Source: Rickettsiaceae bacterium
Lineage (GTDB): Bacteria; Pseudomonadota; Alphaproteobacteria; Rickettsiales; Rickettsiaceae
Assembly: GCA_045106955.1 (NCBI GenBank)
Contig: JBGCFO010000003.1
Location: 14,430-78,429, forward strand
Reading direction: 5' to 3'
DNA length: 64,000 bases
Translations under genes and position numbers: made by a program
Shown here: piece after piece, positions 9,484 to 63,778 of the stretch
Position numbering within the stretch: the first letter of the stretch is position 1
Layout: every line of letters starts with the position of its first letter
Notes under the pieces: model-generated
Databases searched by the model: none
The model's input: only the letters and a program-made list of their open reading frames with translations
Told to the model about the DNA's origin: nothing

Positions 9484-11315
9484 AAATATTTAATATTGCA
9501 GAACCAGATTCTCATAAAAACAAATCTATTGCAATTGGAATTGATTTTGGTACCACCAATTCTTTAGTGGCTTTTTCCGAAAATCGTTCGCCTAGAATTA
9601 TTCCAGACGATAATTCAAGAGGGTTAATTCCCTCTACTATTTCTTTTGAAAATAATCAAGTTTTGATTGGGAAAGATAGGTTTGAAAATGATCAAATAAT
9701 ACATTCAATAAAGCGTATATTAGGCAAATCTAAGGAAGAGCTTTTAAATTCCACTACAACAAATTTTATTCAAAAATATTTAGATAAAAATTCATCTAGG
9801 CCTTTGATAAATATTGGCGATAATAAATTTACCTCATCAGAGCTAGTTGCGCAAATCCTGTCATCATTAAAAAATCAAGCTGAAAGAGCCTTGAATAAAG
9901 AAATATCCGATGTTGTACTTACTGTACCAGCTTATTTTGATGATACAGCAAAAGGAGAGATAATGTTTGCTGCAAAAATTGCTCAACTTAATGTGTTACG
10001 CTTAATTTCAGAACCAACTGCTGCTGCTTATGCATACGGCATAGAAAAAAAAGCACATGCAACATACCTAGTGTTCGATCTTGGCGGTGGCACATTTGAT
10101 GTATCACTAATTAAGCTGAATCATGGAATTTTAAAAGTTATCGCTGCAAATGGTGATAATAATTTAGGAGGAAATGATATCGATTATTTAATCGCAAAGC
10201 ATTTATCAGAAAAACACAATATTCACGATATTAATTCTATTATATATATCGCAAAAACAATAAAACATGAACTAACATATCAAGACTCAGTAAGCATAAA
10301 ACATAATAATACTTTATTTTCCTTGGATAGAACAACATTATCTCAATTAATCGAGCCGATAATGCGATCTATGATTAATATAGTAAAAAATACCTTATCT
10401 ACATTAGAAAATGAACAAAAATTAGATGGAATCATTTTAGTGGGAGGTTCGACTCGTATGTTACTGATAAAAGAACGATTACAACAAGAATTTATGACAC
10501 AAATTTTATCTGATATTGATCCAGATAAAATAGTTGCGTTTGGAGCAGCGCTACAAGCTGAAAATTTAACTAAATCATCAGATCAATCAAAAGATATAAT
10601 TATAGATGCTCTTCCTCTATCTTTAGGAATAGAACTATATGGATCTATGGTAGAAAAGATTATTTTGCGCAATACATCAATCCCAATTTCTGTAAAAAAG
10701 GAATTTACAACATATGTTGATAATCAAAATGCTATAATGTTTCATATAGTTCAAGGAGAGCGTGAAATGGCCCAAGATTGCAGGTCTATAGCTAAATTTG
10801 AATTATCAAATCTTCCAAAAGCTAAAGCTGGTCAAATTAAAGTTGAAGTAATATTTTCAATTGACTCAGATGGTATCTTATCTGTTAGTGCATTCGAAAA
10901 AATTAGCGGCAATTCTCATACAATTGAAGTTAAGCCAACTTATGGTTTAAGCAAGGATGAAATAGATCAAATATTAGAAAAAGCTTACAGATACTCCAGA
11001 GCAGATCATGAGAGTCGATTATTATCCGAAGTAAAATTCAATGCAAATAAATTGATAAAATCAACGCAAGAAAATCAACATACTATTAAAGAAGTTATGA
11101 GCTCAGCAGAACGTCAGAAATTAAAGAATATGTTGCATAAATTAAATCTAGCAATACAAGAAGATGATTACGATAAAATTATATATAATACAGAATCGTT
11201 ATCTTCTTGGTATGAAAAATTTAGCGAAATTATGCTCAATCTAGCCATTTCAGACAAGTTAGAAGGTAAAAATATTGACAAAATACAAAATCAAATAAAT
11301 AGCATACGAAAATGA
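9480..11315 (+). CDS. hscA: Fe-S cluster chaperone HscA (Hsp70 family)
   Basis: 611 aa with Hsp70 motifs [19 protein letters not shown] and LVGGSTRM. It sits in the conserved hscB-hscA-fdx order. Confidence 0.9.
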
Positions 11316-11653
11316 ATATGAAGACAGTAAAAATCACTTTTATTTCAGATGGTAATCACGAGCAAGAAGTCGATGCTCCAATTGGATTATCCGTTTTAGA
11401 GGTAGCTCATGCTCATGATATTGATCTAGAAGGAGCTTGCGAAGGATCTCTAGCATGTGCAACATGTCATGTGATATTGGAAAAAGATTTTTATGAAACA
11501 CTAGAAGAACCATCTGAAGAAGAGGAAGATATGCTAGATTTAGCATTTGGATTAACCGAGACATCAAGACTTGGTTGTCAAATTATTATAGATGAAAATT
11601 GCCAGGGAAAAAAATTTCTCTTACCATCTGCAACGCGTAATATTAAAATATAG
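11312..11653 (+). CDS. fdx: 2Fe-2S ferredoxin, adrenodoxin type
   Basis: 113 aa with the cluster ligand pattern [12 protein letters not shown] ... LGCQI. An ATGA overlap joins it to the hscA stop. Confidence 0.9.
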
Positions 11654-11661
11654 GTATAAAA

Positions 11662-12243
11662 ATGAAAAATATTCAAGAAGTATTTAATGAAAAAACATGC
11701 TATGCATTTTCAGATAAAGCTGTAGATCTAAAATTACTACGTCGAATATATGACGTCATGAAGCTTGGTCCTACTTCAGCCAATTCTTGTCCCCTAAGGA
11801 TGGTATTTGTACATAGTAAAGAAGAAAAGGAGAAATTATATCAATGTCTTTCTCCTGGAAACATCGAAAAAACAAAATCTGCGCCCATTACTACGATTCT
11901 TGCCCACGATGATGAATTTTATAAAAAAATGACAAAATTATTTCCTCATTCAAGCGATTTAATGAATAAATTTGCTCAATCTAAAGAACTAGCGCACAAT
12001 ATAGCAATGCAAAATTCTTTATTACAAGCTGCGTATTTTATGATTACAGCTAGAGGATTTGGTTTGCAAATAGGGCCAATGGGAGGTTTTAATAAAGATG
12101 CGATAAATGAAAAATTCTTTAATGATGACTCAAATTGGCGTGTAAATTTTTTATGTAATTTAGGTTATGCCAAAAATCACGATAATGAAACTTCAACAAA
12201 AAGCCCAAGATTAGAATTTGATGAAACATGTAAAATAATATAA
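11662..12243 (+). CDS. nitroreductase-family NAD(P)H oxidoreductase (RutE/YdjA-like)
   Basis: 193 aa. The N-terminal RRIYDVMKLGPTSANSCPLR block and a C-terminal GPMGGF block are typical of the nitroreductase fold. Confidence 0.7.
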   Translation: MKNIQEVFNEKTCYAFSDKAVDLKLLRRIYDVMKLGPTSANSCPLRMVFVHSKEEKEKLYQCLSPGNIEKTKSAPITTILAHDDEFYKKMTKLFPHSSDLMNKFAQSKELAHNIAMQNSLLQAAYFMITARGFGLQIGPMGGFNKDAINEKFFNDDSNWRVNFLCNLGYAKNHDNETSTKSPRLEFDETCKII

Positions 12244-12250
12244 ATATATA

Positions 12251-23621: not shown

Positions 23622-24219
23622 TTATCTTTTTTTAACGAAAAAACAAGTAGCAATGAAAATAAATTTCACCATGTTAATGATTTTATTAGAAGGATTTAAC
23701 TGAATTGTTTTGTCAATGATTTTATTGAATTTTTAGATAAAAATACTCTGATAACTAATTTAATATTGCTATTCTTTCCTTAGAATTGAGTATTTTTTTA
23801 ACGTTATACGCACTGATGCATATTAAACACAGATGATTTTTCATATCTTTTCTGAGATTGGTAAATAATCTCAGGCCTTGATTGAACAGCTTTAAAAATA
23901 AATTACTTGAAATATAACCCTTATCACCATAGATTTTACCAGTCAAACCAAATGCTAAATTAGCTACTGGAAGTATATCGCTTCTATTTCCTTTTGTAAT
24001 TTTAACAGTCATAATTTCTCCTTTATTATTAATAATCATGTGTAATTTAAATCCCATGAACCAGCCATAGCTAGATTTGCCTACCTTAGCAATTCTAGCT
24101 AATACTCTATTGTTAGATGTGCGTTTATTATGACAAATTTGTAATTTGCTAGAATCGATAAAATATGTACCAGTATCCTCTCCATTGAACAATTGCATTA
24201 AACTAATAGAGCTCAGCAA
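23622..24219 (-). mobile_element. IS982-family transposase remnant (N-terminally truncated, 3' part frameshifted with stops)
   Basis: ORF 23755..24219 reads DSSKLQICHNKR...GKSSYGWFMGFKLHMIINNKGEIM...GNRSD...YGDKGYIS...LFTNLRKDMKN, the IS982 DDE core pattern. It covers only ~150 of the ~290 aa expected. A C-terminal-like piece (KIIDKTIQLN...) continues in another frame down to ~23622. No inverted repeats identified. Confidence 0.65.
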
Positions 24220-36057: not shown

Positions 36058-37584
36058 TTAGCCTTGATCTCTTTCTACTTGCTTATGATTTTCTTCAAGC
36101 GCACTCTGATATTTAGTATTAAGCGCTCGTACATTTAAAATCCACAGGAGCATTACTATAACAAATATAGCGGCAAATACCGGAGCAGCATCAGTGAAAC
36201 CATAACTTGGGAACAATATGAAGAAAGTTGATTGAAAGATTGCTCCAGACATTTTACCTAATCTTCCGCCAATAACATCCACAGCAGCTTTACCCTTTGT
36301 TTGCAATTCATTATCAAGAGGTATGTATGACATTTCTTTTGTTGAATCAAACAAAGAATACTTGGTAGCTTTACTTAAAATATTTTGCAAAGCGCCAAGA
36401 TTAACAGCCATAACTAATGGAGTAGCAGAAAAAATAGCTACCATATAAGGTGATACGGTATTATCGAATATATCCATAAGGAAGAAAGTTGTTCCAGTGA
36501 TTAATATCATTAATGGAGTAAGTATTGCAGCTGTTCCCCACTTCACTTTACGCAGAATATTTGCGCCAATAATCATGAAAATGATGCTTGTAATCCCTTG
36601 CATAGTTTGAAAGTTAGCCATGTATAATGCTATCTGATCTTTTGATTGGTATAATGCACCAACTTTGGATTTCCAAACTCCTTCAACCAGATTAATAGAA
36701 AATCCATAAAATATAACTAAGCCAGCAATTAATCCAAGATATTTTGATGTAAAGATAATCTTCATACTTTCGGAGAAAGATATTTTAGATTTCTTTTTTG
36801 GTTTAGCATGATCTTGGTCAGATGGGTTATATAATTTAGGATCAGTCAATACATAAAGATTCATCCATCTATATATTGCGCATACTATTAAACCATTGGC
36901 TATGATGATAAAAAATAACTTAGAGAAATCTTGCGATGATCCACTGGAACCACCAACAGAATCCATATCAATATTTACTTTCAATACATTCATAATAGCG
37001 AAACCAGTAATGATTAATCCTACATTGCCTATTACGCCAAACATAGAATAGAATCTTTTTGCTTCTTGAGTAGTTGTAATTTTGTTAGCAAATTGCCAAA
37101 ATAATAAAGTTGTTACAACTACACCCCAAAGCTCAGACATCGTGTAGAAACTAACATACCCCCAATTGCCTGCAATACGAATAAACCATTTAATATTTGG
37201 ATAAGCAAGACTTAGTCTATCTATGGTATCGCGTGATAGATGCAAAGTATCATAAAAATTCTCTATTACTAGCGCAAAAGCTGCAAAATACGAAACAAAT
37301 GTTAATACTATAATATAAAAGACTGCTTGCTGCGTAAATTTATTGCATAATCTTGCGTAAATTATCATAACAGCTATAGCAGCAGGAAAAACAACATATG
37401 TTTTGATGAAACTAATCAATTCTGTGCCTATTGAAATTATATATCCATCTTTCATAGATCTTAGCATTGAATAATTCATTAAGATGCAAAGCATCATCAA
37501 TGCCATAGGTAAAAATTTCTTTATTTCATGAGACTCTATAGGCCATACTACTTTTCGTAGATCTGAGAATGAATAGTTAAACAT
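36058..37584 (-). CDS. tlc: ATP/ADP translocase (nucleotide transporter, NTT/Tlc family)
   Basis: 508 aa and collinear with Rickettsia Tlc1 as I remember it: WPIE.HE.KKFLPMA, LNYS.LRS.KDG, AKRFYSMFG, IFTSKY.G, NLVEGVWKSKV, KYSLFD.TKEM.YIPLD, and GGRLGK.GAI.QSTFFILFP. Confidence 0.95.
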   Translation of the reverse strand: MFNYSFSDLRKVVWPIESHEIKKFLPMALMMLCILMNYSMLRSMKDGYIISIGTELISFIKTYVVFPAAIAVMIIYARLCNKFTQQAVFYIIVLTFVSYFAAFALVIENFYDTLHLSRDTIDRLSLAYPNIKWFIRIAGNWGYVSFYTMSELWGVVVTTLLFWQFANKITTTQEAKRFYSMFGVIGNVGLIITGFAIMNVLKVNIDMDSVGGSSGSSQDFSKLFFIIIANGLIVCAIYRWMNLYVLTDPKLYNPSDQDHAKPKKKSKISFSESMKIIFTSKYLGLIAGLVIFYGFSINLVEGVWKSKVGALYQSKDQIALYMANFQTMQGITSIIFMIIGANILRKVKWGTAAILTPLMILITGTTFFLMDIFDNTVSPYMVAIFSATPLVMAVNLGALQNILSKATKYSLFDSTKEMSYIPLDNELQTKGKAAVDVIGGRLGKMSGAIFQSTFFILFPSYGFTDAAPVFAAIFVIVMLLWILNVRALNTKYQSALEENHKQVERDQG

Positions 37585-57682: not shown

Positions 57683-60340
57683 ATGAGTACAAATACTATA
57701 TCCCAAATTCGAAATAAATTTATAGAATATTTCACACAAAATCAGCATGTACATGTTAAATCTAGCTCTTTAATTCCTCACAATGATCCAAGCTTAATGT
57801 TTGTAAATTCTGGAATGGTTCAGTTTAAGAATGTTTTTACCGATCAAGAGCGGAGAGAATATGTTAAAGCAACTAGTAGTCAAAAATGTTTGCGCGCTGG
57901 AGGCAAGCACAATGATTTAGAAAATGTAGGTTATACAGCTAGACATCATACATTTTTTGAAATGCTTGGCAATTTCTCCTTTGGCGATTATTTTAAGGAG
58001 GAAGCGATTTATCATGCGTGGAACTTGCTAACAAAAGATCTAGAGCTATCAAAAGACAAGTTATACATAACAATATATCATTCTGACCAAGAAGCTGCTC
58101 AATATTGGAAGAAAATTGCAAACTTATCTGATGATAGGATAATTAGAATTAAAACATCTGATAATTTTTGGTCCATGGGGCCAACTGGACCATGTGGGCC
58201 CTGCTCTGAAATTTTCTACGATCATGGCCCATCCATCGCAGGAGGACCCCCAGGAAGTCCAAACGAAGATGGCGATCGTTTTGTTGAAATCTGGAATTTA
58301 GTATTCATGGAATTTGAACAAATAGATGAAAAAACTCGCGTTTTATTACCAAAAAAATCTGTAGATACAGGTATGGGTTTAGAGCGAATTGCAACTGTAT
58401 TACAAGGTATTCACGATAATTACGACACAGATCTATTTAAAGAGCTAATAACAACATCTGAAGATGTAATTAAGGTCAAAAATATAGGTCAAGCTCAATT
58501 TAGTTACCGCATTATCACTGATCATTTGCGTGCAATGTCATTTTTAATTGCAGATGGGATAATGCCTTCTAATGAAGGTAGAGGTTATGTACTTAGGCGT
58601 ATTATGAGAAGAGCGATGAGACATGCGCATACACTTGGAGCTAGAAATCCAGTAATTTATAAAATATTACCAAAGCTTGTAGAGCTTATGGGATCATTCT
58701 ATCTAGAACTTGATAAATCATACGAATTTATCCAAAGTATTATACATCAAGAAGAGGAAAGATTTATTAAAACTCTTGGTAGGGGAATGAAATTATTGAC
58801 CGAAGAAATTGAAAATAAATTAGTTTCGAAACAATTAACTGGAGAAGCTGCATTTAAATTATACGATACATACGGCTTTCCCTTAGATCTTACTCAAGAT
58901 ATATTAAAAGAAAAAAATATTACAGTAGATACTGATGGATTTGATAAGGAAATGAAAGCTCAAAAGGATAGAGCTCGTAAAGCTTGGTCTGGATCTGGCG
59001 AAGGTAAGATTGATCAGACATGGTTTGATATCAAATCAAAATATGGTTCTACAGAATTTTTAGGATATACATTAAACAAAGCATATGGAAAGGTATTAGA
59101 GTTAATTCACAAGAATAAACAAATTAAAAATTTTGGTATATTAGATGTAGAATTTATTGTTATTGTTAATCAAACTCCGTTCTATGCTGAATCTGGTGGT
59201 CAAATGGGCGATATTGGCGCGATTAAATCTGATCATTGCGAAATTCAAGTAATAGATACTAAAAAATATCTTGGTCTACATGCGCATATTTGCAAATTAA
59301 AAAAAGGCAGTATCAACACTAATGATACTATCTATTTAGAAATAAATGATCAATATAGACAAAACTTAAAATTGCATCATTCTGCAACTCATTTACTGCA
59401 TAGCGCTTTAAGACAGAAATTAGGGGCTCATGTTACACAAAAAGGCTCGTTAGTTGCTCAAAACTACTTGAGATTTGATTTTAGCAATCCAAGCGCTATA
59501 ACTAATGACCAGCTATTGATGATAGAAAATGATATCAATCAAATCATAAGAAACAATCTAAAGCTCAATACACAAATAATGTCGATAGATGATGCGATTG
59601 ACAAAGGCGCTATGGCATTATTTGGAGAAAAATATGATAATGAAGTTCGCGTTGTAAGTGTTGGAGATGAAAAATACGATAATCTTTATTCCATAGAATT
59701 ATGCGGTGGAACGCATATAAATAATACTGGAGAGATTGGGTTATTTAAAATCGTAGGTGAACAGGCTATTGCCGCTGGTGTTAGACGCATTGAGGGTGTG
59801 TGCGGGCAATTTGCATTAGATTTTACTCGCAACTATCAAGATACAATAAATCAAATATCACAAACTCTTAAAGTTCCTAACAATGATATTCTATCGAAAA
59901 TTAGCTATTTAATTGATCATAGCAAATCATTAGAACAAGCATTGGTAAATGCATCTCTATCTAAATTAGATTTATCAACAGATGAAATCAATAAAACTGC
60001 TACAAAAATAAAGGATATTTCATTTGTATTTAAAATTATCGATAGCATTGACGATATTAAACTAATTAGAAATGCAGCAATTGCATCGGCAGGAAAAACA
60101 GATAACCTCATTATCTTGTACGCTGTTAATTTAAAGGGTAAAATATCAATAATAGTTGCAACATCTCAAAGCCTTAAAGATAAATTTAGCGCTAAAGATT
60201 TTGTAAATAATATTTCGTTGTTTTTAGATGGCAAAGGCGGTGGAGGTACAGCAACTCTTGCACAAGCTGGTGGAACAAATATCAAAAAATTATACGAATT
60301 ACAGCATTATGCTATTGATAATTTGACCAATATGCTTTAA
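57683..60340 (+). CDS. alaS: alanine--tRNA ligase
   Basis: 885 aa with FFEMLGNFSFGDYFK, the editing-domain Zn motif HSATHLLH ... CGGTH, and a C-terminal DHHA1 domain GGGG. Confidence 0.95.
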   Translation: MSTNTISQIRNKFIEYFTQNQHVHVKSSSLIPHNDPSLMFVNSGMVQFKNVFTDQERREYVKATSSQKCLRAGGKHNDLENVGYTARHHTFFEMLGNFSFGDYFKEEAIYHAWNLLTKDLELSKDKLYITIYHSDQEAAQYWKKIANLSDDRIIRIKTSDNFWSMGPTGPCGPCSEIFYDHGPSIAGGPPGSPNEDGDRFVEIWNLVFMEFEQIDEKTRVLLPKKSVDTGMGLERIATVLQGIHDNYDTDLFKELITTSEDVIKVKNIGQAQFSYRIITDHLRAMSFLIADGIMPSNEGRGYVLRRIMRRAMRHAHTLGARNPVIYKILPKLVELMGSFYLELDKSYEFIQSIIHQEEERFIKTLGRGMKLLTEEIENKLVSKQLTGEAAFKLYDTYGFPLDLTQDILKEKNITVDTDGFDKEMKAQKDRARKAWSGSGEGKIDQTWFDIKSKYGSTEFLGYTLNKAYGKVLELIHKNKQIKNFGILDVEFIVIVNQTPFYAESGGQMGDIGAIKSDHCEIQVIDTKKYLGLHAHICKLKKGSINTNDTIYLEINDQYRQNLKLHHSATHLLHSALRQKLGAHVTQKGSLVAQNYLRFDFSNPSAITNDQLLMIENDINQIIRNNLKLNTQIMSIDDAIDKGAMALFGEKYDNEVRVVSVGDEKYDNLYSIELCGGTHINNTGEIGLFKIVGEQAIAAGVRRIEGVCGQFALDFTRNYQDTINQISQTLKVPNNDILSKISYLIDHSKSLEQALVNASLSKLDLSTDEINKTATKIKDISFVFKIIDSIDDIKLIRNAAIASAGKTDNLIILYAVNLKGKISIIVATSQSLKDKFSAKDFVNNISLFLDGKGGGGTATLAQAGGTNIKKLYELQHYAIDNLTNML

Positions 60341-60355
60341 AACTCTTATATATAA

Positions 60356-60447
<92 letters not shown>

Positions 60448-60827
60448 GTTTTTAATGCTCGAAAAGTTTTCGCTGGATTTTCTGGGTTCATAAATACGCC
60501 TCTAAACCCCAGTATTCATGGGCTTTAGCGCATTTAAGTCACGCAACACATGCGTACCTAGAGAATCCAAAAATCACCAAAAACACCCCAAATTCTCCCT
60601 TTTTGTTCTCTGTTTCTCCGTTACATGCGAACGTCGGTCGTGAAGGTACGCATCTATCAACCCCTTGATTTTACTGGATTTTTGCGATTTCGGCATTTTG
60701 AGGTTCGTTTTTGGCGGATGGTGTGCGGGGTACTCAGAGTAAGAGAAACCTCTTGACTTCAGTACCTAACATTAGTAAACTTGCATATAATATGAGTGGC
60801 AGAATCAATTTTTAATGTAGGTAACTT

Positions 60828-61250
60828 ATGTGGATTAGAGAGCATAACAAATTTTATCCCGACGTATCCCCTGAGGAGATTTGGAAGATATGGATAGATA
60901 TTAACAACTGGCCCAGTTGGCATGGAGATTTGGATTATTGCAAGCTTGATGGCGACTTCAAGGTGGGAAATCATTTTATGCTGAAGCCTAAAGGCGCGCC
61001 AGCAGTTAAGATTATGCTGACTGAAATTAATGAGATGCAGAATTTTACCGACTGCACAAAGTTCTTCGGGGCTAAAATGTACGATACCCACAGCATGGAA
61101 GTGAAAGATGGTGGTGTTCTGCTTTCCAATAAATTAGTGGTTACAGGGCCCTTAAAATGGCTGTGGATCAAGCTTGTGGCAAAGCATGTTGCAGACACAG
61201 TTCCAGATGAGATGGACTCTTTGGTTAATCTGGCTAGGAATAAAGGCTGA
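60828..61250 (+). CDS. SRPBCC-superfamily (polyketide-cyclase/START-like) small-ligand-binding protein
   Basis: 140 aa. The N-terminal EEIWKIWIDINNWPSWHGDLDYCKLDG block and the size are typical of SRPBCC/polyketide_cyc2 proteins. It is the first gene of the higher-GC operon. Confidence 0.6.
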   Translation: MWIREHNKFYPDVSPEEIWKIWIDINNWPSWHGDLDYCKLDGDFKVGNHFMLKPKGAPAVKIMLTEINEMQNFTDCTKFFGAKMYDTHSMEVKDGGVLLSNKLVVTGPLKWLWIKLVAKHVADTVPDEMDSLVNLARNKG

Positions 61251-61255
61251 AAGAT

Positions 61256-61717
61256 ATGACAAATCCACCATTTGGTTTTGATGCACCTGAAGATAGCCCT
61301 GGTTTTTTGCTATGGCAAACAACTATTTCTTGGCAACGTATGATCAAAAAAGCATTAGAGCCACATGATATCTCCCATGCCCAATTTGTTATTATGGCTA
61401 TATTGCTTTGGTGGCATGGTCAGAAGAGAGAAGTAACTCAAATTGATATTGTCACAATGTCTAAACTAGATAAGATGACTGTTTCAAAATCATTAAAGAA
61501 ATTGGTTGGGATGGATTTAGTAGCAAGACATGAAAACCAAGAGGACACAAGAGCTAAATCCGTGGAATTAACAAAATTGGGGGTGGCTTTAGCCGGTAAG
61601 CTAGTACCTATTGTAGAAGGCGTAGATGAGGATTTTTTTGCCAAGCTTCCGAAAAAACAGGAAAAAGATTTGATAGTAATTTTACGAAAATTAACGGTGG
61701 CAGAAGATGTTAACTAA
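61256..61717 (+). CDS. MarR-family transcriptional regulator
   Basis: 153 aa with a winged-helix core (SHAQFVIMAILLW...TQIDIVTMSKLDKMTVSKSLKKLVGMDLVARHENQEDTRAKSVELTKLG). It starts 5 nt after the SRPBCC gene. Confidence 0.85.
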   Translation: MTNPPFGFDAPEDSPGFLLWQTTISWQRMIKKALEPHDISHAQFVIMAILLWWHGQKREVTQIDIVTMSKLDKMTVSKSLKKLVGMDLVARHENQEDTRAKSVELTKLGVALAGKLVPIVEGVDEDFFAKLPKKQEKDLIVILRKLTVAEDVN

Positions 61718-62726
61718 GCCTAACCTTAAAGATGAAAAAATTATCGCATGCTTGCACGATAACTATGATTTAGATATCGCTGAAATTTCTTTTCTACCAC
61801 TTGGTGCTGATTTTAATACTGCCGTGTACCGAGTTACGACAACAGATAAAACAGACTATTTTCTAAAGCTACGATCTGGAGATTTTTGTGAGCCCAGCGT
61901 ATTAGTTCCACATCACTTAAAACAAATTGGTCTGCAAAATATTATCCCTCCTATTGCAACTAAAACAGACGAATGTTGGACAAATTTAGATGCCTTTAAT
62001 GTGGCCTTGTATCCTTATATTGATGGGCGTAATGCTGTGGATAGTCAAATATCAGAACAACAATGGCAGCAATTTGGGGAGACAGTAAAAAAATTACATA
62101 CTGCTGATATTCCCGAGTCTATTATTAGCAATGTACCAAAAGAAACTTTCTCATTAAAGTGTTGCCAAACGGTAAGATTATTCCTTGAGCGTATAGAAAA
62201 TGAAGTCTTTGATGAAGCTGTAGCCACAAAGTTGGCTGCATTATTAAAGTCTAAAAATGATATCATTTTGGACTTGATAAAACGAACAGAAGAACTTGGC
62301 TCCATACTGCAAAATCAATCCCTTCAACATGTATTATGTCACGCTGATATGCACGGCTGGAATTTGTTGATCGATCAAGATGATCATTTGTATCTCATTG
62401 ACTGGGATACTCTGGTCTTAGCACCAAAGGAGCGTGATTTAATGTTTATTGGTGCAGGCATTTGGGATAGTTGCTACACACCAACTGAAGAAGAATCATT
62501 ATTTTATAAAGGCTATGGGCAAGCCAATATAAACCAAGATGCACTTTGTTACTATCGTTTTAGTCGCATATTACAAGATATTGCTGAATATTGTGAATAC
62601 ATCTTCTTGTCTGATGAAGGCGGTGATGATCGGATGCAGGCTCTTGAACATCTAAAACCTAATTTTTTGCCAAACGGCACAATAGAAAGAGCATATCATG
62701 CTGACAAAATGAGGAATGTTTCATGA
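61707..62726 (+). CDS. aminoglycoside/small-molecule phosphotransferase (APH family, APH(9)-like)
   Basis: 339 aa with catalytic loop LCHADMHGWNLLI and Mg-binding YLIDWD followed by LAPKERDLMFIG. From memory, this block and the overall length resemble Legionella APH(9)-Ia spectinomycin kinase. It overlaps marR by 11 nt. Confidence 0.75.
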   Translation: MLTKPNLKDEKIIACLHDNYDLDIAEISFLPLGADFNTAVYRVTTTDKTDYFLKLRSGDFCEPSVLVPHHLKQIGLQNIIPPIATKTDECWTNLDAFNVALYPYIDGRNAVDSQISEQQWQQFGETVKKLHTADIPESIISNVPKETFSLKCCQTVRLFLERIENEVFDEAVATKLAALLKSKNDIILDLIKRTEELGSILQNQSLQHVLCHADMHGWNLLIDQDDHLYLIDWDTLVLAPKERDLMFIGAGIWDSCYTPTEEESLFYKGYGQANINQDALCYYRFSRILQDIAEYCEYIFLSDEGGDDRMQALEHLKPNFLPNGTIERAYHADKMRNVS

Positions 62727-63778
62727 AGTTATATTTTATAGGCGGCGCCAGCGGTAGCGGCAAGACAGCGATTATGCCAGAACTGCAAAAAATATTAGGC
62801 AGCGAAATAAAGGTCTACGATTTTGATGATATTGGAGTACCTGAAGGTGCTGATAAAAAATGGCGCCAAGAATCTACAGAAAAGTGGTTGCAACAATTAC
62901 TTTCAGATGGCAAAGATGCCTGTTTGCTTGGCCAAATTGTTTTAGGCGAAATCATAGCATGTCCTTCTGCTAAAAAATTAGATTACATTAATTTTTGCTT
63001 GTTAGATGTAAGTGACTTTGAGCGAATCCAACGCTTGAAAAAACGCAATACCTACGGCGCTGATCAAAATATGTTGAACTGGTCTGCTTGGCTTCGTATG
63101 CACACCCGTGATCCGCAATGGACACAGCAAGTAATCAAAGATGCTTCTTGGGATGGTTTAGATTTTTCCTCTTGGGATCGGAGTCTAACCTGGCCAACCA
63201 ATGTCAGCACTAAAATTATCGATACAACTTCTCTAGATATTAAAGAAGTTGCTGAGCAAGTAGCTGCTTGGATTAATAACAACAAAATTGATACGGCTCG
63301 TCTAACAATTAGAGAAATTACAGCAAATGATTTAAATGCGCTATATGGTCTTCTTAGTAATGAAGATGTAATGCGCTACTCTGTGCATGGGCCATATTCC
63401 AAAAAGCAGACAGAAGATTGGATTAGCTTTATTACAGAGCATTATAAAAAGTATCCTCTTGGTATGTGGGCAGTTATAGAAAAAGATAATGATGTGTTAA
63501 TTGGCATATGTGGGTTAATGCCGTTAAGCGATGATGATTCAAAATATGAAATTGGATATAGAATATTACCTGATTTCCAAGGCAAAGGTTATGCGACTGA
63601 GGCCGCTATTGCTGTAAGAGATTACGCTATAAGCGTTGGGGTTAATCAGTTTATTGCTTACATTGAAAAAGAAAACAAACCTTCAGTAAAAATTTCCGAG
63701 AAAATTGGTATGAATTTTCTAAAGAATGGAACCTATAAAAACATACCGGTTCTCATATATGAGTACAAGGTGGAATAA
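62723..63778 (+). CDS. fusion protein: N-terminal P-loop NTPase/kinase-like domain + C-terminal GNAT N-acetyltransferase (RimJ/RimL-like)
   Basis: 351 aa. Walker A is at the extreme N-terminus (FIGGASGSGKTAI). From about residue 193 there is a GNAT domain (LTIREITANDLNALYGLL...IGYRILPDFQGKGYATEA...). An ATGA overlap joins it to the APH gene. Confidence 0.75.
   Translation: MKLYFIGGASGSGKTAIMPELQKILGSEIKVYDFDDIGVPEGADKKWRQESTEKWLQQLLSDGKDACLLGQIVLGEIIACPSAKKLDYINFCLLDVSDFERIQRLKKRNTYGADQNMLNWSAWLRMHTRDPQWTQQVIKDASWDGLDFSSWDRSLTWPTNVSTKIIDTTSLDIKEVAEQVAAWINNNKIDTARLTIREITANDLNALYGLLSNEDVMRYSVHGPYSKKQTEDWISFITEHYKKYPLGMWAVIEKDNDVLIGICGLMPLSDDDSKYEIGYRILPDFQGKGYATEAAIAVRDYAISVGVNQFIAYIEKENKPSVKISEKIGMNFLKNGTYKNIPVLIYEYKVE

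Follow-up and report, generated by a model that had tools for sequence, protein, structure and literature searches.

The locus examined here raises the question of what a Rickettsiaceae bacterium would do with a transcriptional regulator, a kinase resembling an antibiotic phosphotransferase and a protein joining a nucleotide-binding domain to an acetyltransferase, all encoded in close succession. The genes lie at the end of a 64,000-nt stretch of contig JBGCFO010000003.1 (assembly GCA_045106955.1, positions 14,430 to 78,429). This entire stretch is called the window, and the labels L### and P#### denote the homologous loci and proteins that were compared with it. Exact look-ups of the APH(9)-like kinase and of the fusion protein returned no contig, and gene context was read from their close homologs. 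The locus is probably a mobile, MarR-controlled cassette whose several enzymes would modify an antibiotic-like small molecule, carried as the cargo operon of an islet beside a tRNA-Ser gene. Judged from the sequences, the target is most likely an antibiotic-like natural product. This reading is carried by gene order and coupling, intact motifs, purifying selection, recent transfer across phyla, the association with tRNA-Ser and the resistance-type cargo of sister islands. The initial annotation had seen a small-molecule- or antibiotic-modifying module, and in this general form its reading was supported: APH(9)-Ia is the nearest relative of the kinase, and related islands are rich in genes for APH, GNAT, methyltransferase and beta-lactamase proteins.

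Organisation of the cassette

The initial annotation had described three open reading frames (ORFs) on the plus strand, for MarR, an APH-type kinase and a P-loop::GNAT protein. The ORF list confirmed their positions and overlaps, which measured 11 nt between MarR and APH and 4 nt (ATGA) between APH and P-loop, and thereby also the operon-like coupling of the three genes. The unit proved larger than the proposed three-gene cassette. A CPBP/Rce1-like gene from 63779, a tRNA-Ser gene and a rise in GC content had been overlooked. The unit comprises tRNA-Ser, an arm of about 300 bp, a promoter and the genes SRPBCC-MarR-APH-P-loop::GNAT-CPBP, with the following features:

60356 to 60447, plus strand: intact tRNA-Ser(GCT) gene directly 3' of alaS, at which islands of this family insert recurrently (ARAGORN; Rfam, 60.5 bits)
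60448 to 60750, plus strand: conserved non-coding arm of about 300 bp and about 44% GC (alignments)
60751 to 60827, plus strand: promoter-proximal region common to all cassette copies
60828 to 61250, plus strand: SRPBCC/Polyketide_cyc2-like putative small ligand-binding protein, 140 aa (Pfam, PDB 3ijt)
61256 to 61717, plus strand: MarR-family winged-helix regulator, 153 aa (Pfam, PDB relatives)
61707 to 62726, plus strand: predicted APH(9)-like small-molecule kinase of the eukaryotic protein kinase (ePK) fold, 339 aa (NCBIfam, PDB 3i0o)
62723 to 63286, plus strand: P-loop kinase-like domain of the fusion protein, residues 1-188 (sub-threshold AAA_18; AlphaFold2 (AF2) and Foldseek)
63287 to 63778, plus strand: GNAT domain (Acetyltransf_3, RimJ/RimL/SpeG-like), C-terminal part of the fusion protein (Pfam, PDB)
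63779 to 64000, plus strand: start of a gene for a CPBP/Rce1-like intramembrane protease (sequence, counterpart in L093)

The P-loop::GNAT ORF spanned 62723-63778 (plus strand, 351 aa). The fusion is not an assembly artefact, since it was found in independent assemblies, identical or at least 90% identical in P0035 and P0039/L093 and 83% identical in L091. The CPBP/Rce1-like ORF began with an ATG at 63779, directly after the stop of the fusion gene, and ran past the window end. Its counterpart in L093 (3245-3937) encodes 230 aa annotated as PF02517 Rce1-like and matched the window ORF from 63779 with E=3e-36 in phmmer. Nucleotide identity between the window and L093 was 92.7% and reached position 63990. 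From the tRNA-Ser gene onward the GC content was 36-44%, against about 31% elsewhere in the window. The contig belongs to a metagenome-assembled genome labelled Rickettsiaceae, and the window also encodes a TLC ATP/ADP translocase (36058-37584, minus strand, 557 bits). This translocase is a hallmark of energy-parasitic intracellular bacteria, and its presence therefore makes an obligate intracellular host credible.

The APH(9)-like kinase

The kinase matched the Pfam family APH with 66.7 bits and Choline_kinase weakly with 31 bits. A phmmer search against the PDB returned APH(9)-Ia of Legionella pneumophila (3i0o) with E=5e-60, aligning residues 5-335 with 4-332. The catalytic residues claimed by the initial annotation were intact. 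The motifs H212-A-D214-M-H-G-W-N219 (HxDxxxxN) and I231-D-W-D234 (the Mg-binding DxD) as well as the beta3 Lys K54 were present, and K54, H212, D214, N219, D232 and D234 were invariant in 21 homologs. The motif APKERDLMFIG was common to the window kinase and APH(9)-Ia. APH(9)-Ia took the first five places among the Foldseek matches, with E-values about ten orders of magnitude better than those of YihE, macrolide kinases and choline kinases; the underlying AF2 model was of low confidence, with a predicted local distance difference test (pLDDT) score of 55. The initial annotation had named clustering with non-antibiotic kinases, together with the lack of a resistance phenotype, as an outcome that would speak against it. 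Such clustering was not found, as homoserine, choline and macrolide kinases matched far more weakly than APH(9)-Ia.

The term APH(9)-like held insofar as APH(9)-Ia is the closest solved relative, and it failed as a claim of orthology. Identity to APH(9)-Ia was 32%, with 30-35% for the whole clade; the tree was read with the L090 row left out. The NCBIfam model APH_9_Ia matched over the full length with 245 bits against a cutoff of 680, and APH_9_Ib with 28 bits against 675. On these sequence comparisons, the window kinase is best placed in a sister clade of APH(9)-Ia and is not an ortholog. An identity of 32% is compatible with drug-kinase activity, because APH(9)-Ic, a kinase verified to act on spectinomycin, has itself only 33.75% identity to APH(9)-Ia (PMC9868417). 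Such activity would thus be possible at this distance, and it is not implied. The two proteins are alike in fold, length, catalytic Lys, HxDxxxxN and IDWD. Unlike the window kinase, APH(9)-Ia is encoded by a stand-alone chromosomal gene without P-loop, MarR, SRPBCC or GNAT neighbours and without a tRNA-Ser island.

The kinase clade comprised 3965 matches in the protein search and at least 574 loci in one-genome-per-species data, and hence at least 574 species. The tier of 57-91% identity consisted mostly of Legionella, Coxiellaceae, Holospora, Finniella, Jidaibacter, Megaira, Paracaedibacteraceae, Caedibacter and Chlamydiota. The few metagenome-assembled genomes (MAGs) with other labels in this tier may be binning errors. 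Homologs of 47-55% identity were found in free-living Chloroflexota, where the APH gene was single. The ratio of nonsynonymous to synonymous substitution (dN/dS) of the kinase was 0.14-0.21.

The P-loop partner and its fusions

Of the 20 genome loci with 59% identity or more, 13 had the P-loop gene directly 3' of APH. The 4-nt ATGA overlap between the two recurred in every locus in which ORF ends were read (L009, L011, L012, L013, L016, L017 and L023). With 67-87% identity, the P-loop protein was more conserved than APH (60-65%). Beside the Chloroflexota APH homologs the P-loop gene was absent. The initial annotation had joined MarR, the kinase and the P-loop::GNAT protein in one module; the fusion is real, whereas the conserved unit is APH plus P-loop, with a swappable GNAT domain. 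L091, a Rickettsiales-like chromosome, carried at 10001-12368 an 83%-identical P-loop::GNAT(Acetyltransf_3) fusion without an APH gene, followed by NUDIX and hydroxyethylthiazole-kinase-like (ThiM-like) genes. The pairing of APH and P-loop is therefore not absolute.

The P-loop domain showed a Walker A motif (G8-ASGSGKT15) and matched AAA_18 over residues 5-110 with 26.6-28.2 bits, below the cutoff of 29.4. A Zeta_toxin match of 15.8 bits covered residues 2-25 only. The domain was also considered as a CPT or zeta-toxin kinase, and this assignment was rejected, as PF07931 was not matched and the 15.8-bit match to PF06414 was partial. A PDB profile search returned only Walker-A grazes and no relative. 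Foldseek of the AF2 model pointed to deoxyadenosine, shikimate and gluconate kinases (1knq) and to hCINAP. Both AF2 models were of low confidence (pLDDT 62 here, 55 for the kinase), and the fold searches are therefore only corroborative. Across the P-loop family, G8, G13, K14, R48, G75, E76, R104, R108, H127 and D167 were invariant or at least 90% conserved. D33-F-D35 was kept in the close family, in which D33 and D35 were invariant. Together, the conserved residues make up a kinase-like constellation.

The family is small: a search of 1.84e9 proteins gave 804 representative clusters at E<=1e-3. The domain occurred in a stand-alone form of about 195 aa or fused to varied C-terminal domains. 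The commonest partners were GNAT domains of the Acetyltransf_10/7/1 type, and the window version carried an Acetyltransf_3 GNAT. Further partners were S-adenosylmethionine (SAM) methyltransferase, NUDIX, SnoaL-like and ANT(2'')-like nucleotidyltransferase domains, and some homologs had a CPT/zeta-like kinase as an extra C-terminal domain. One P-loop::GNAT homolog, P0199, bears the database label 'unnamed protein product' of Ectocarpus, a brown alga, and another copy was present in the Megaira endosymbiont of Nemacystus, likewise a brown alga. Algal assemblies may thus contain symbiont sequence.

Among characterised proteins, GAR provides the best functional analogy for the P-loop domain. GAR is a proven P-loop aminoglycoside-resistance protein specific for garosamine, with a Walker A motif, an AAA_18 match, a gluconate-kinase-like fold and a DxD motif at residues 31-33 (PMC7085159). 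Like GAR and TmrB/TmrD-type P-loop kinases, the window domain has about 170-190 aa, an N-terminal Walker A, a DxD about 20 residues further on (D33-F-D35), an AAA_18 match, a gluconate-kinase-like predicted fold and a mobile platform of resistance type. Unlike GAR, it is paired with an APH(9)-like kinase, the L091 fusion excepted, and is often fused to a second enzyme. Homology between the two was not detectable: the window protein missed the GAR model NF038208, and a distant family member gave only a Walker-A graze (E=0.009).

The acetyltransferase domain

The acetyltransferase domain assigned to the fusion protein was confirmed. Residues 193-330 matched Acetyltransf_3 with 120 bits (cutoff 25.4, E=1.2e-34), and the acetyl-CoA motif QGKGYA (Q/RxxGxG/A) was present. 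PDB matches were 3fbu (3.8e-13) and SpeG (about 1e-9). NCBIfam matches to SpeG (38.6 bits), BlmB (27.6 bits), Pat and RimL-like proteins remained far below their cutoffs, and no curated AAC(2'), AAC(3) or AAC(6') model of NCBIfam was matched at E<=0.01. The initial annotation had argued from two classic aminoglycoside-inactivating chemistries in one operon. With a RimJ/RimL/SpeG-like GNAT that matches no AAC model, this argument was not upheld and is therefore only an analogy.

Nucleotide homology with L003, L005 and L009 stopped at 63275-63277, the domain junction, and continued in L091 and L093. The GNAT domain is therefore one swappable module. A GNAT of 84% identity was fused to a nucleotidyltransferase in P0220. 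In joining an acetyltransferase to a kinase-type domain in one polypeptide, with modular partners, the fusion resembles bifunctional aminoglycoside-modifying enzymes such as AAC(6')-Ie/APH(2'')-Ia. It differs in its reversed order, with the kinase-like domain N-terminal and the GNAT C-terminal, in a kinase-like domain of P-loop rather than ePK fold, in a GNAT of the Acetyltransf_3 rather than AAC(6') type, and in that its activities are predicted.

Promoter, regulator and ligand-binding protein

A promoter scan returned a candidate consisting of TTGACT (60753-60758), a 17-nt spacer and TAAACT (60776-60781); the number of sites was not above chance. A perfect TATAAT stood at 60786-60791 and was overlapped by the short, AT-rich palindrome CATAT-A-ATATG (60784-60794), a candidate MarR operator by its sequence. 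The promoter-proximal region was kept even in L005 and L093, whose upstream DNA differs. No intrinsic terminator was found within 60300-64000.

Assignment of the regulator to MarR was well founded, with PF01047 at 33 bits (cutoff 24.6), PF22381 Staph_reg_Sar_Rot at 40 bits and many MarR relatives in the PDB, among them MepR, OhrR and HosA (E about 1e-6 to 1e-7). Its dN/dS was 0.07-0.19. The gene was present only in the closest cassette copies (at least 85% APH identity) and in L023. MarR-regulated operons such as MepR-mepA and MarRAB likewise combine a MarR gene with putative detoxification genes, and MepR, OhrR and MexR are near relatives of the window protein. Unlike in these operons, the window MarR gene is second in its operon and is not divergently transcribed.

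The SRPBCC assignment is weak but plausible. PDB 3ijt was matched with E=2e-11, which supports it, and Polyketide_cyc2 with 25 bits, below the Pfam cutoff of 27.4. The protein was 90-97% identical in L003, L005, L007 and L010, with a dN/dS of 0.06-0.17.

The tRNA-Ser islet and its transfer

The arm following the tRNA-Ser gene contained the motif ACATGCGTACCT at 60548-60559, a variant ACATGCGAACGT at 60623-60634 and an inverted copy AGGTACGCAT at 60644-60653. It was 87-92% identical in L003, L005 and L007, and still 75-80% identical where the proteins were only about 63% identical. A tRNA-Ser gene was located upstream of homologous cassettes or arms in L003, L007, L009, L011, L013, L016, L017, L018, L021 and L055, and in 23 of the 30 metagenome contigs carrying the motif (L094-L123). 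In 19 of these 23 contigs the motif, there as ACACATGCGTACYTAGAGAATC, began 98-100 nt past the tRNA end; in the window it began 99 nt past it. The tRNA-Ser genes associated with the arm were of four anticodon types, GGA, GCT, TGA and CGA.

No Rfam family was found in the arm at permissive thresholds, the only results being the tRNA and a sub-threshold antisense match to it. That match was to the Plastid-psbl-rps4 3' untranslated region RNA, at 60391-60444 on the minus strand and antisense to tRNA-Ser (45 bits, gathering threshold 68). It is most likely not a real element, the family overlapping tRNA-like sequence. RNAalifold showed no covariation in the arm, as the inverted repeat does not vary on either side. 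Searches of plasmids and viral contigs did not recover the arm, and no literature description of it was found. It may be a recombination or protein-binding region.

Copies of about 90% DNA identity were present in a Chlamydiota MAG (L003), in Megaira (L010) and in several metagenome contigs. With a synonymous divergence (dS) of 0.2-0.4 and a dN/dS of 0.06-0.26 for every gene, these copies therefore reflect recent transfer under purifying selection. Copies of 99.7-100% identity were present in the samples SRR29999183 and SRR29999185. Tandem arms or tRNA-end remnants were observed in L101 (at 937 and 7215) and L007 (33-122 and about 5650). In L005, the arm (1-293) and the cassette promoter (5452) were separated by 5 kb with NUDIX, GFA, MarR_2 and SnoaL_2. 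These arrangements suggest serial accretion of cargo at the same site. The locus is probably a tRNA-targeted island, to judge from the tRNA-adjacent insertion, the atypical GC content and the same element in unrelated genomes.

The cargo 3' of the arms varied and consisted mostly of APH, GNAT, methyltransferase, beta-lactamase and multicopper-oxidase genes. Sister islands also carried APH(6), extra APHs, an ABC exporter and further MarRs. A large serine recombinase was encoded at the distal end of L011, L111 and L118, in L118 together with DUF2924. L118 showed the order tRNA-Ser, arm, APH, APH(9)-like, P-loop::GNAT, GNAT, methyltransferase and an unknown gene, followed by a reverse-strand unknown gene, the recombinase and DUF2924. 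Such a recombinase may move the element. A phmmer search with the island integrase of Legionella adelaidensis revealed no tyrosine integrase in the other loci, and no direct repeats of the tRNA 3' end were found downstream of the cassettes.

Insertion sequence (IS) elements flanked the cassettes of L005 and L093. The window contained a 154-aa fragment of a DDE_Tnp_1_3 transposase (23755-24219, minus strand) related to the IS flanking L093 (E=4e-33). The same IS family is therefore present elsewhere in the genome. The plasmid of Legionella adelaidensis (NZ_LR134433, 337442-352414, L090) carried an APH homolog beside RepB primase, AlpA and a tyrosine integrase, in an array whose other members were a metallophosphoesterase, a GNAT, a 416-aa phosphotransferase and an AAA ATPase. 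Here the same kinase family is carried by another kind of mobile platform. A plasmid of Megaira polyxenophila likewise bore related genes.

Transfer of APH and GNAT genes among the amoeba-resisting bacteria Legionella drancourtii, Parachlamydia and Rickettsiales was described in 2011 (PMC3220658). The window island resembles this exchange and other tRNA islands in tRNA adjacency, atypical GC content and near-identical copies across phyla, and L. drancourtii itself was among the compared loci (L032). Unlike such islands, it likely depends on a large serine recombinase instead of a tyrosine integrase, and no downstream tRNA direct repeat was found. A further difference is the conserved 300-bp arm, with its fixed offset of 98-100 nt from tRNA-Ser genes that have four different anticodons. 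The initial annotation had called such a cassette unexpected in an obligate intracellular symbiont. This did not hold: it is no surprise there, because the family is enriched in protist-associated intracellular bacteria and the exchange of APH and GNAT genes among amoeba-resisting bacteria was published in 2011 (PMC3220658).

Proposed function and alternatives

In the proposed mechanism, MarR would keep the single promoter (about 60753-60791) repressed as long as its ligand is absent, and the SRPBCC protein may bind or sequester a hydrophobic ligand. The APH(9)-like kinase would O-phosphorylate the compound, and the translationally coupled P-loop kinase-like domain would perform a second ATP-dependent step on the same or a related compound. 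The fused GNAT domain would acetylate an amine, and the CPBP membrane protein may add an immunity-type function.

Several points weigh against a drug-modifying cassette. No substrate or phenotype is on record for any member of the APH clade or the P-loop family, and metabolites and proteins, too, are substrates of APH-fold and GNAT enzymes. Genuine APH(9)-Ia is encoded without a P-loop, MarR or GNAT gene next to it, the kinase stayed far below the curated APH(9) cutoffs, and the GNAT matched none of the AAC models. The P-loop domain matched no curated family, Gar/GrdA included; Pfam and NCBIfam scans of distant members gave the same result. Its AF2 model was of low confidence (pLDDT 62, predicted template modelling score (pTM) 0.62). 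A search for exact inverted repeats as MarR operator yielded nothing longer than the short palindrome. The window stops at base 64000, short of the distal island end. Some copies are decaying. In the Chlamydiota loci L003/L004, the P-loop gene was split into two fragments (L003, 11030-11575). In the Megaira of Nemacystus (L010, 6001-6864), APH was cut at about codon 288 and followed by different sequence and masked Ns. The benefit is therefore not universal.

It is doubtful that the cassette is a spectinomycin or aminoglycoside resistance operon with a true spectinomycin (aminocyclitol) 9-O-phosphotransferase as its kinase. APH(9)-Ia is the sole strong match of the kinase, over the full length and including the common APKERDLMFIG motif, and APH(9)-Ic, about equally far from APH(9)-Ia (33.75%), still phosphorylates spectinomycin (PMC9868417). 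However, the identity of 32%, the equidistance of the entire clade (30-35%) and the score far below the curated cutoff argue against it, as do an APH(9)-Ia that works alone, without a P-loop partner, and a GNAT that is not an AAC. Less probable still is that two kinases and an acetyltransferase salvage or process a host metabolite, such as a sugar, amino-alcohol, nucleoside or polyamine, without detoxifying a drug. The APH fold spans metabolite kinases, including choline, homoserine, methylthioribose and fructosamine kinases, and the weak Choline_kinase match of 31 bits would fit. The P-loop fold is like that of nucleoside, shikimate and gluconate kinases, the spermidine N-acetyltransferase SpeG is among the nearest named relatives of the GNAT, and the L091 fusion adjoins NUDIX and ThiM-like kinase genes. 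The patchy, accessory distribution on islands, plasmids and IS-flanked segments points away from metabolism, and so do the linkage to MarR and resistance-type gene arrays, the decay in some hosts and a similarity to APH(9)-Ia far closer than to any metabolic kinase. If the substrate were a metabolite, the cassette would be an ordinary accessory operon.

A toxin-antitoxin, abortive-infection or other defence or addiction module, with the GNAT or kinase as toxin and the regulator as antitoxin, is very unlikely. GNAT and kinase toxins exist, the Megaira plasmid copy adjoins an Abi gene and a RelE/ParE pair, and AbiEii and Fic genes occur in sister islands. Yet PADLOC returned only a weak winged helix-turn-helix graze for MarR (E=1e-5, CARF-associated model) and no match for the other three proteins. 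The enzyme-rich layout of five genes on the same strand with variable modifiers is unlike known toxin-antitoxin systems, and the APH clade is also found as a single gene in free-living Chloroflexota. Hardly credible is a role of the kinase and acetyltransferase as secreted, host-directed effectors. Legionella, Coxiellaceae, Chlamydiota, Holospora and Rickettsiales, in which the family is enriched, are lineages with many secreted kinases, and ankyrin-repeat genes lie 3' of the L005 cassette. Against effectors stand a bacterial-type operon under a MarR regulator with a putative cytosolic ligand-binding protein, the homologs of 47-55% identity in free-living Chloroflexota and a nearest characterised relative that is a cytosolic drug kinase. 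A mobile cassette modifying an antibiotic-like compound is the preferred reading.

A more far-reaching version of it is tentative and rather unlikely to hold in full. The APH(9)-like kinase and its obligately coupled P-loop partner would then be a previously unrecognised two-kinase drug-modification system. The P-loop proteins would form a new class of antibiotic kinases analogous to GAR and a platform for interchangeable GNAT, methyltransferase, NUDIX and nucleotidyltransferase domains. The system would have spread among obligate intracellular bacteria of protists by a new family of tRNA-Ser-specific, large-serine-recombinase islands with a conserved 300-bp arm. If this were true, the symbionts would face, and share defences against, a specific natural product of their protist or co-symbiont environment.

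Other features of the window

Two adjacent ORFs on the minus strand (15162-16733 and 17049-18455) carried GTA_TIM and Phage-tail_3 domains. They may be gene-transfer-agent- or phage-tail-like and may represent one gene split in two. A 565-aa ORF at 21827-23524 (minus strand) had no Pfam match at E<=1e-5.

Implications

The exchange of APH and GNAT genes among amoeba-resisting bacteria and resistance-type islands at tRNA genes are already known. The conserved APH(9)-like/P-loop pair, the P-loop family with its modular fusions and the tRNA-Ser arm appear to be new. If the enzymes inactivate a drug, they would constitute a large unrecognised reservoir of resistance-type genes, the kinase being present in at least 574 species and the P-loop family counting about 800 representative clusters. 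The P-loop proteins would then follow GAR as the second case of antibiotic kinases of P-loop type, and their fusions would be a natural mix-and-match series of bifunctional modifiers. The clade moves between phyla of intracellular bacteria with common protist hosts, Legionella included, and the tRNA-Ser arm with its serine-recombinase islands provides a marker by which gene flow among genome-reduced symbionts can be traced.

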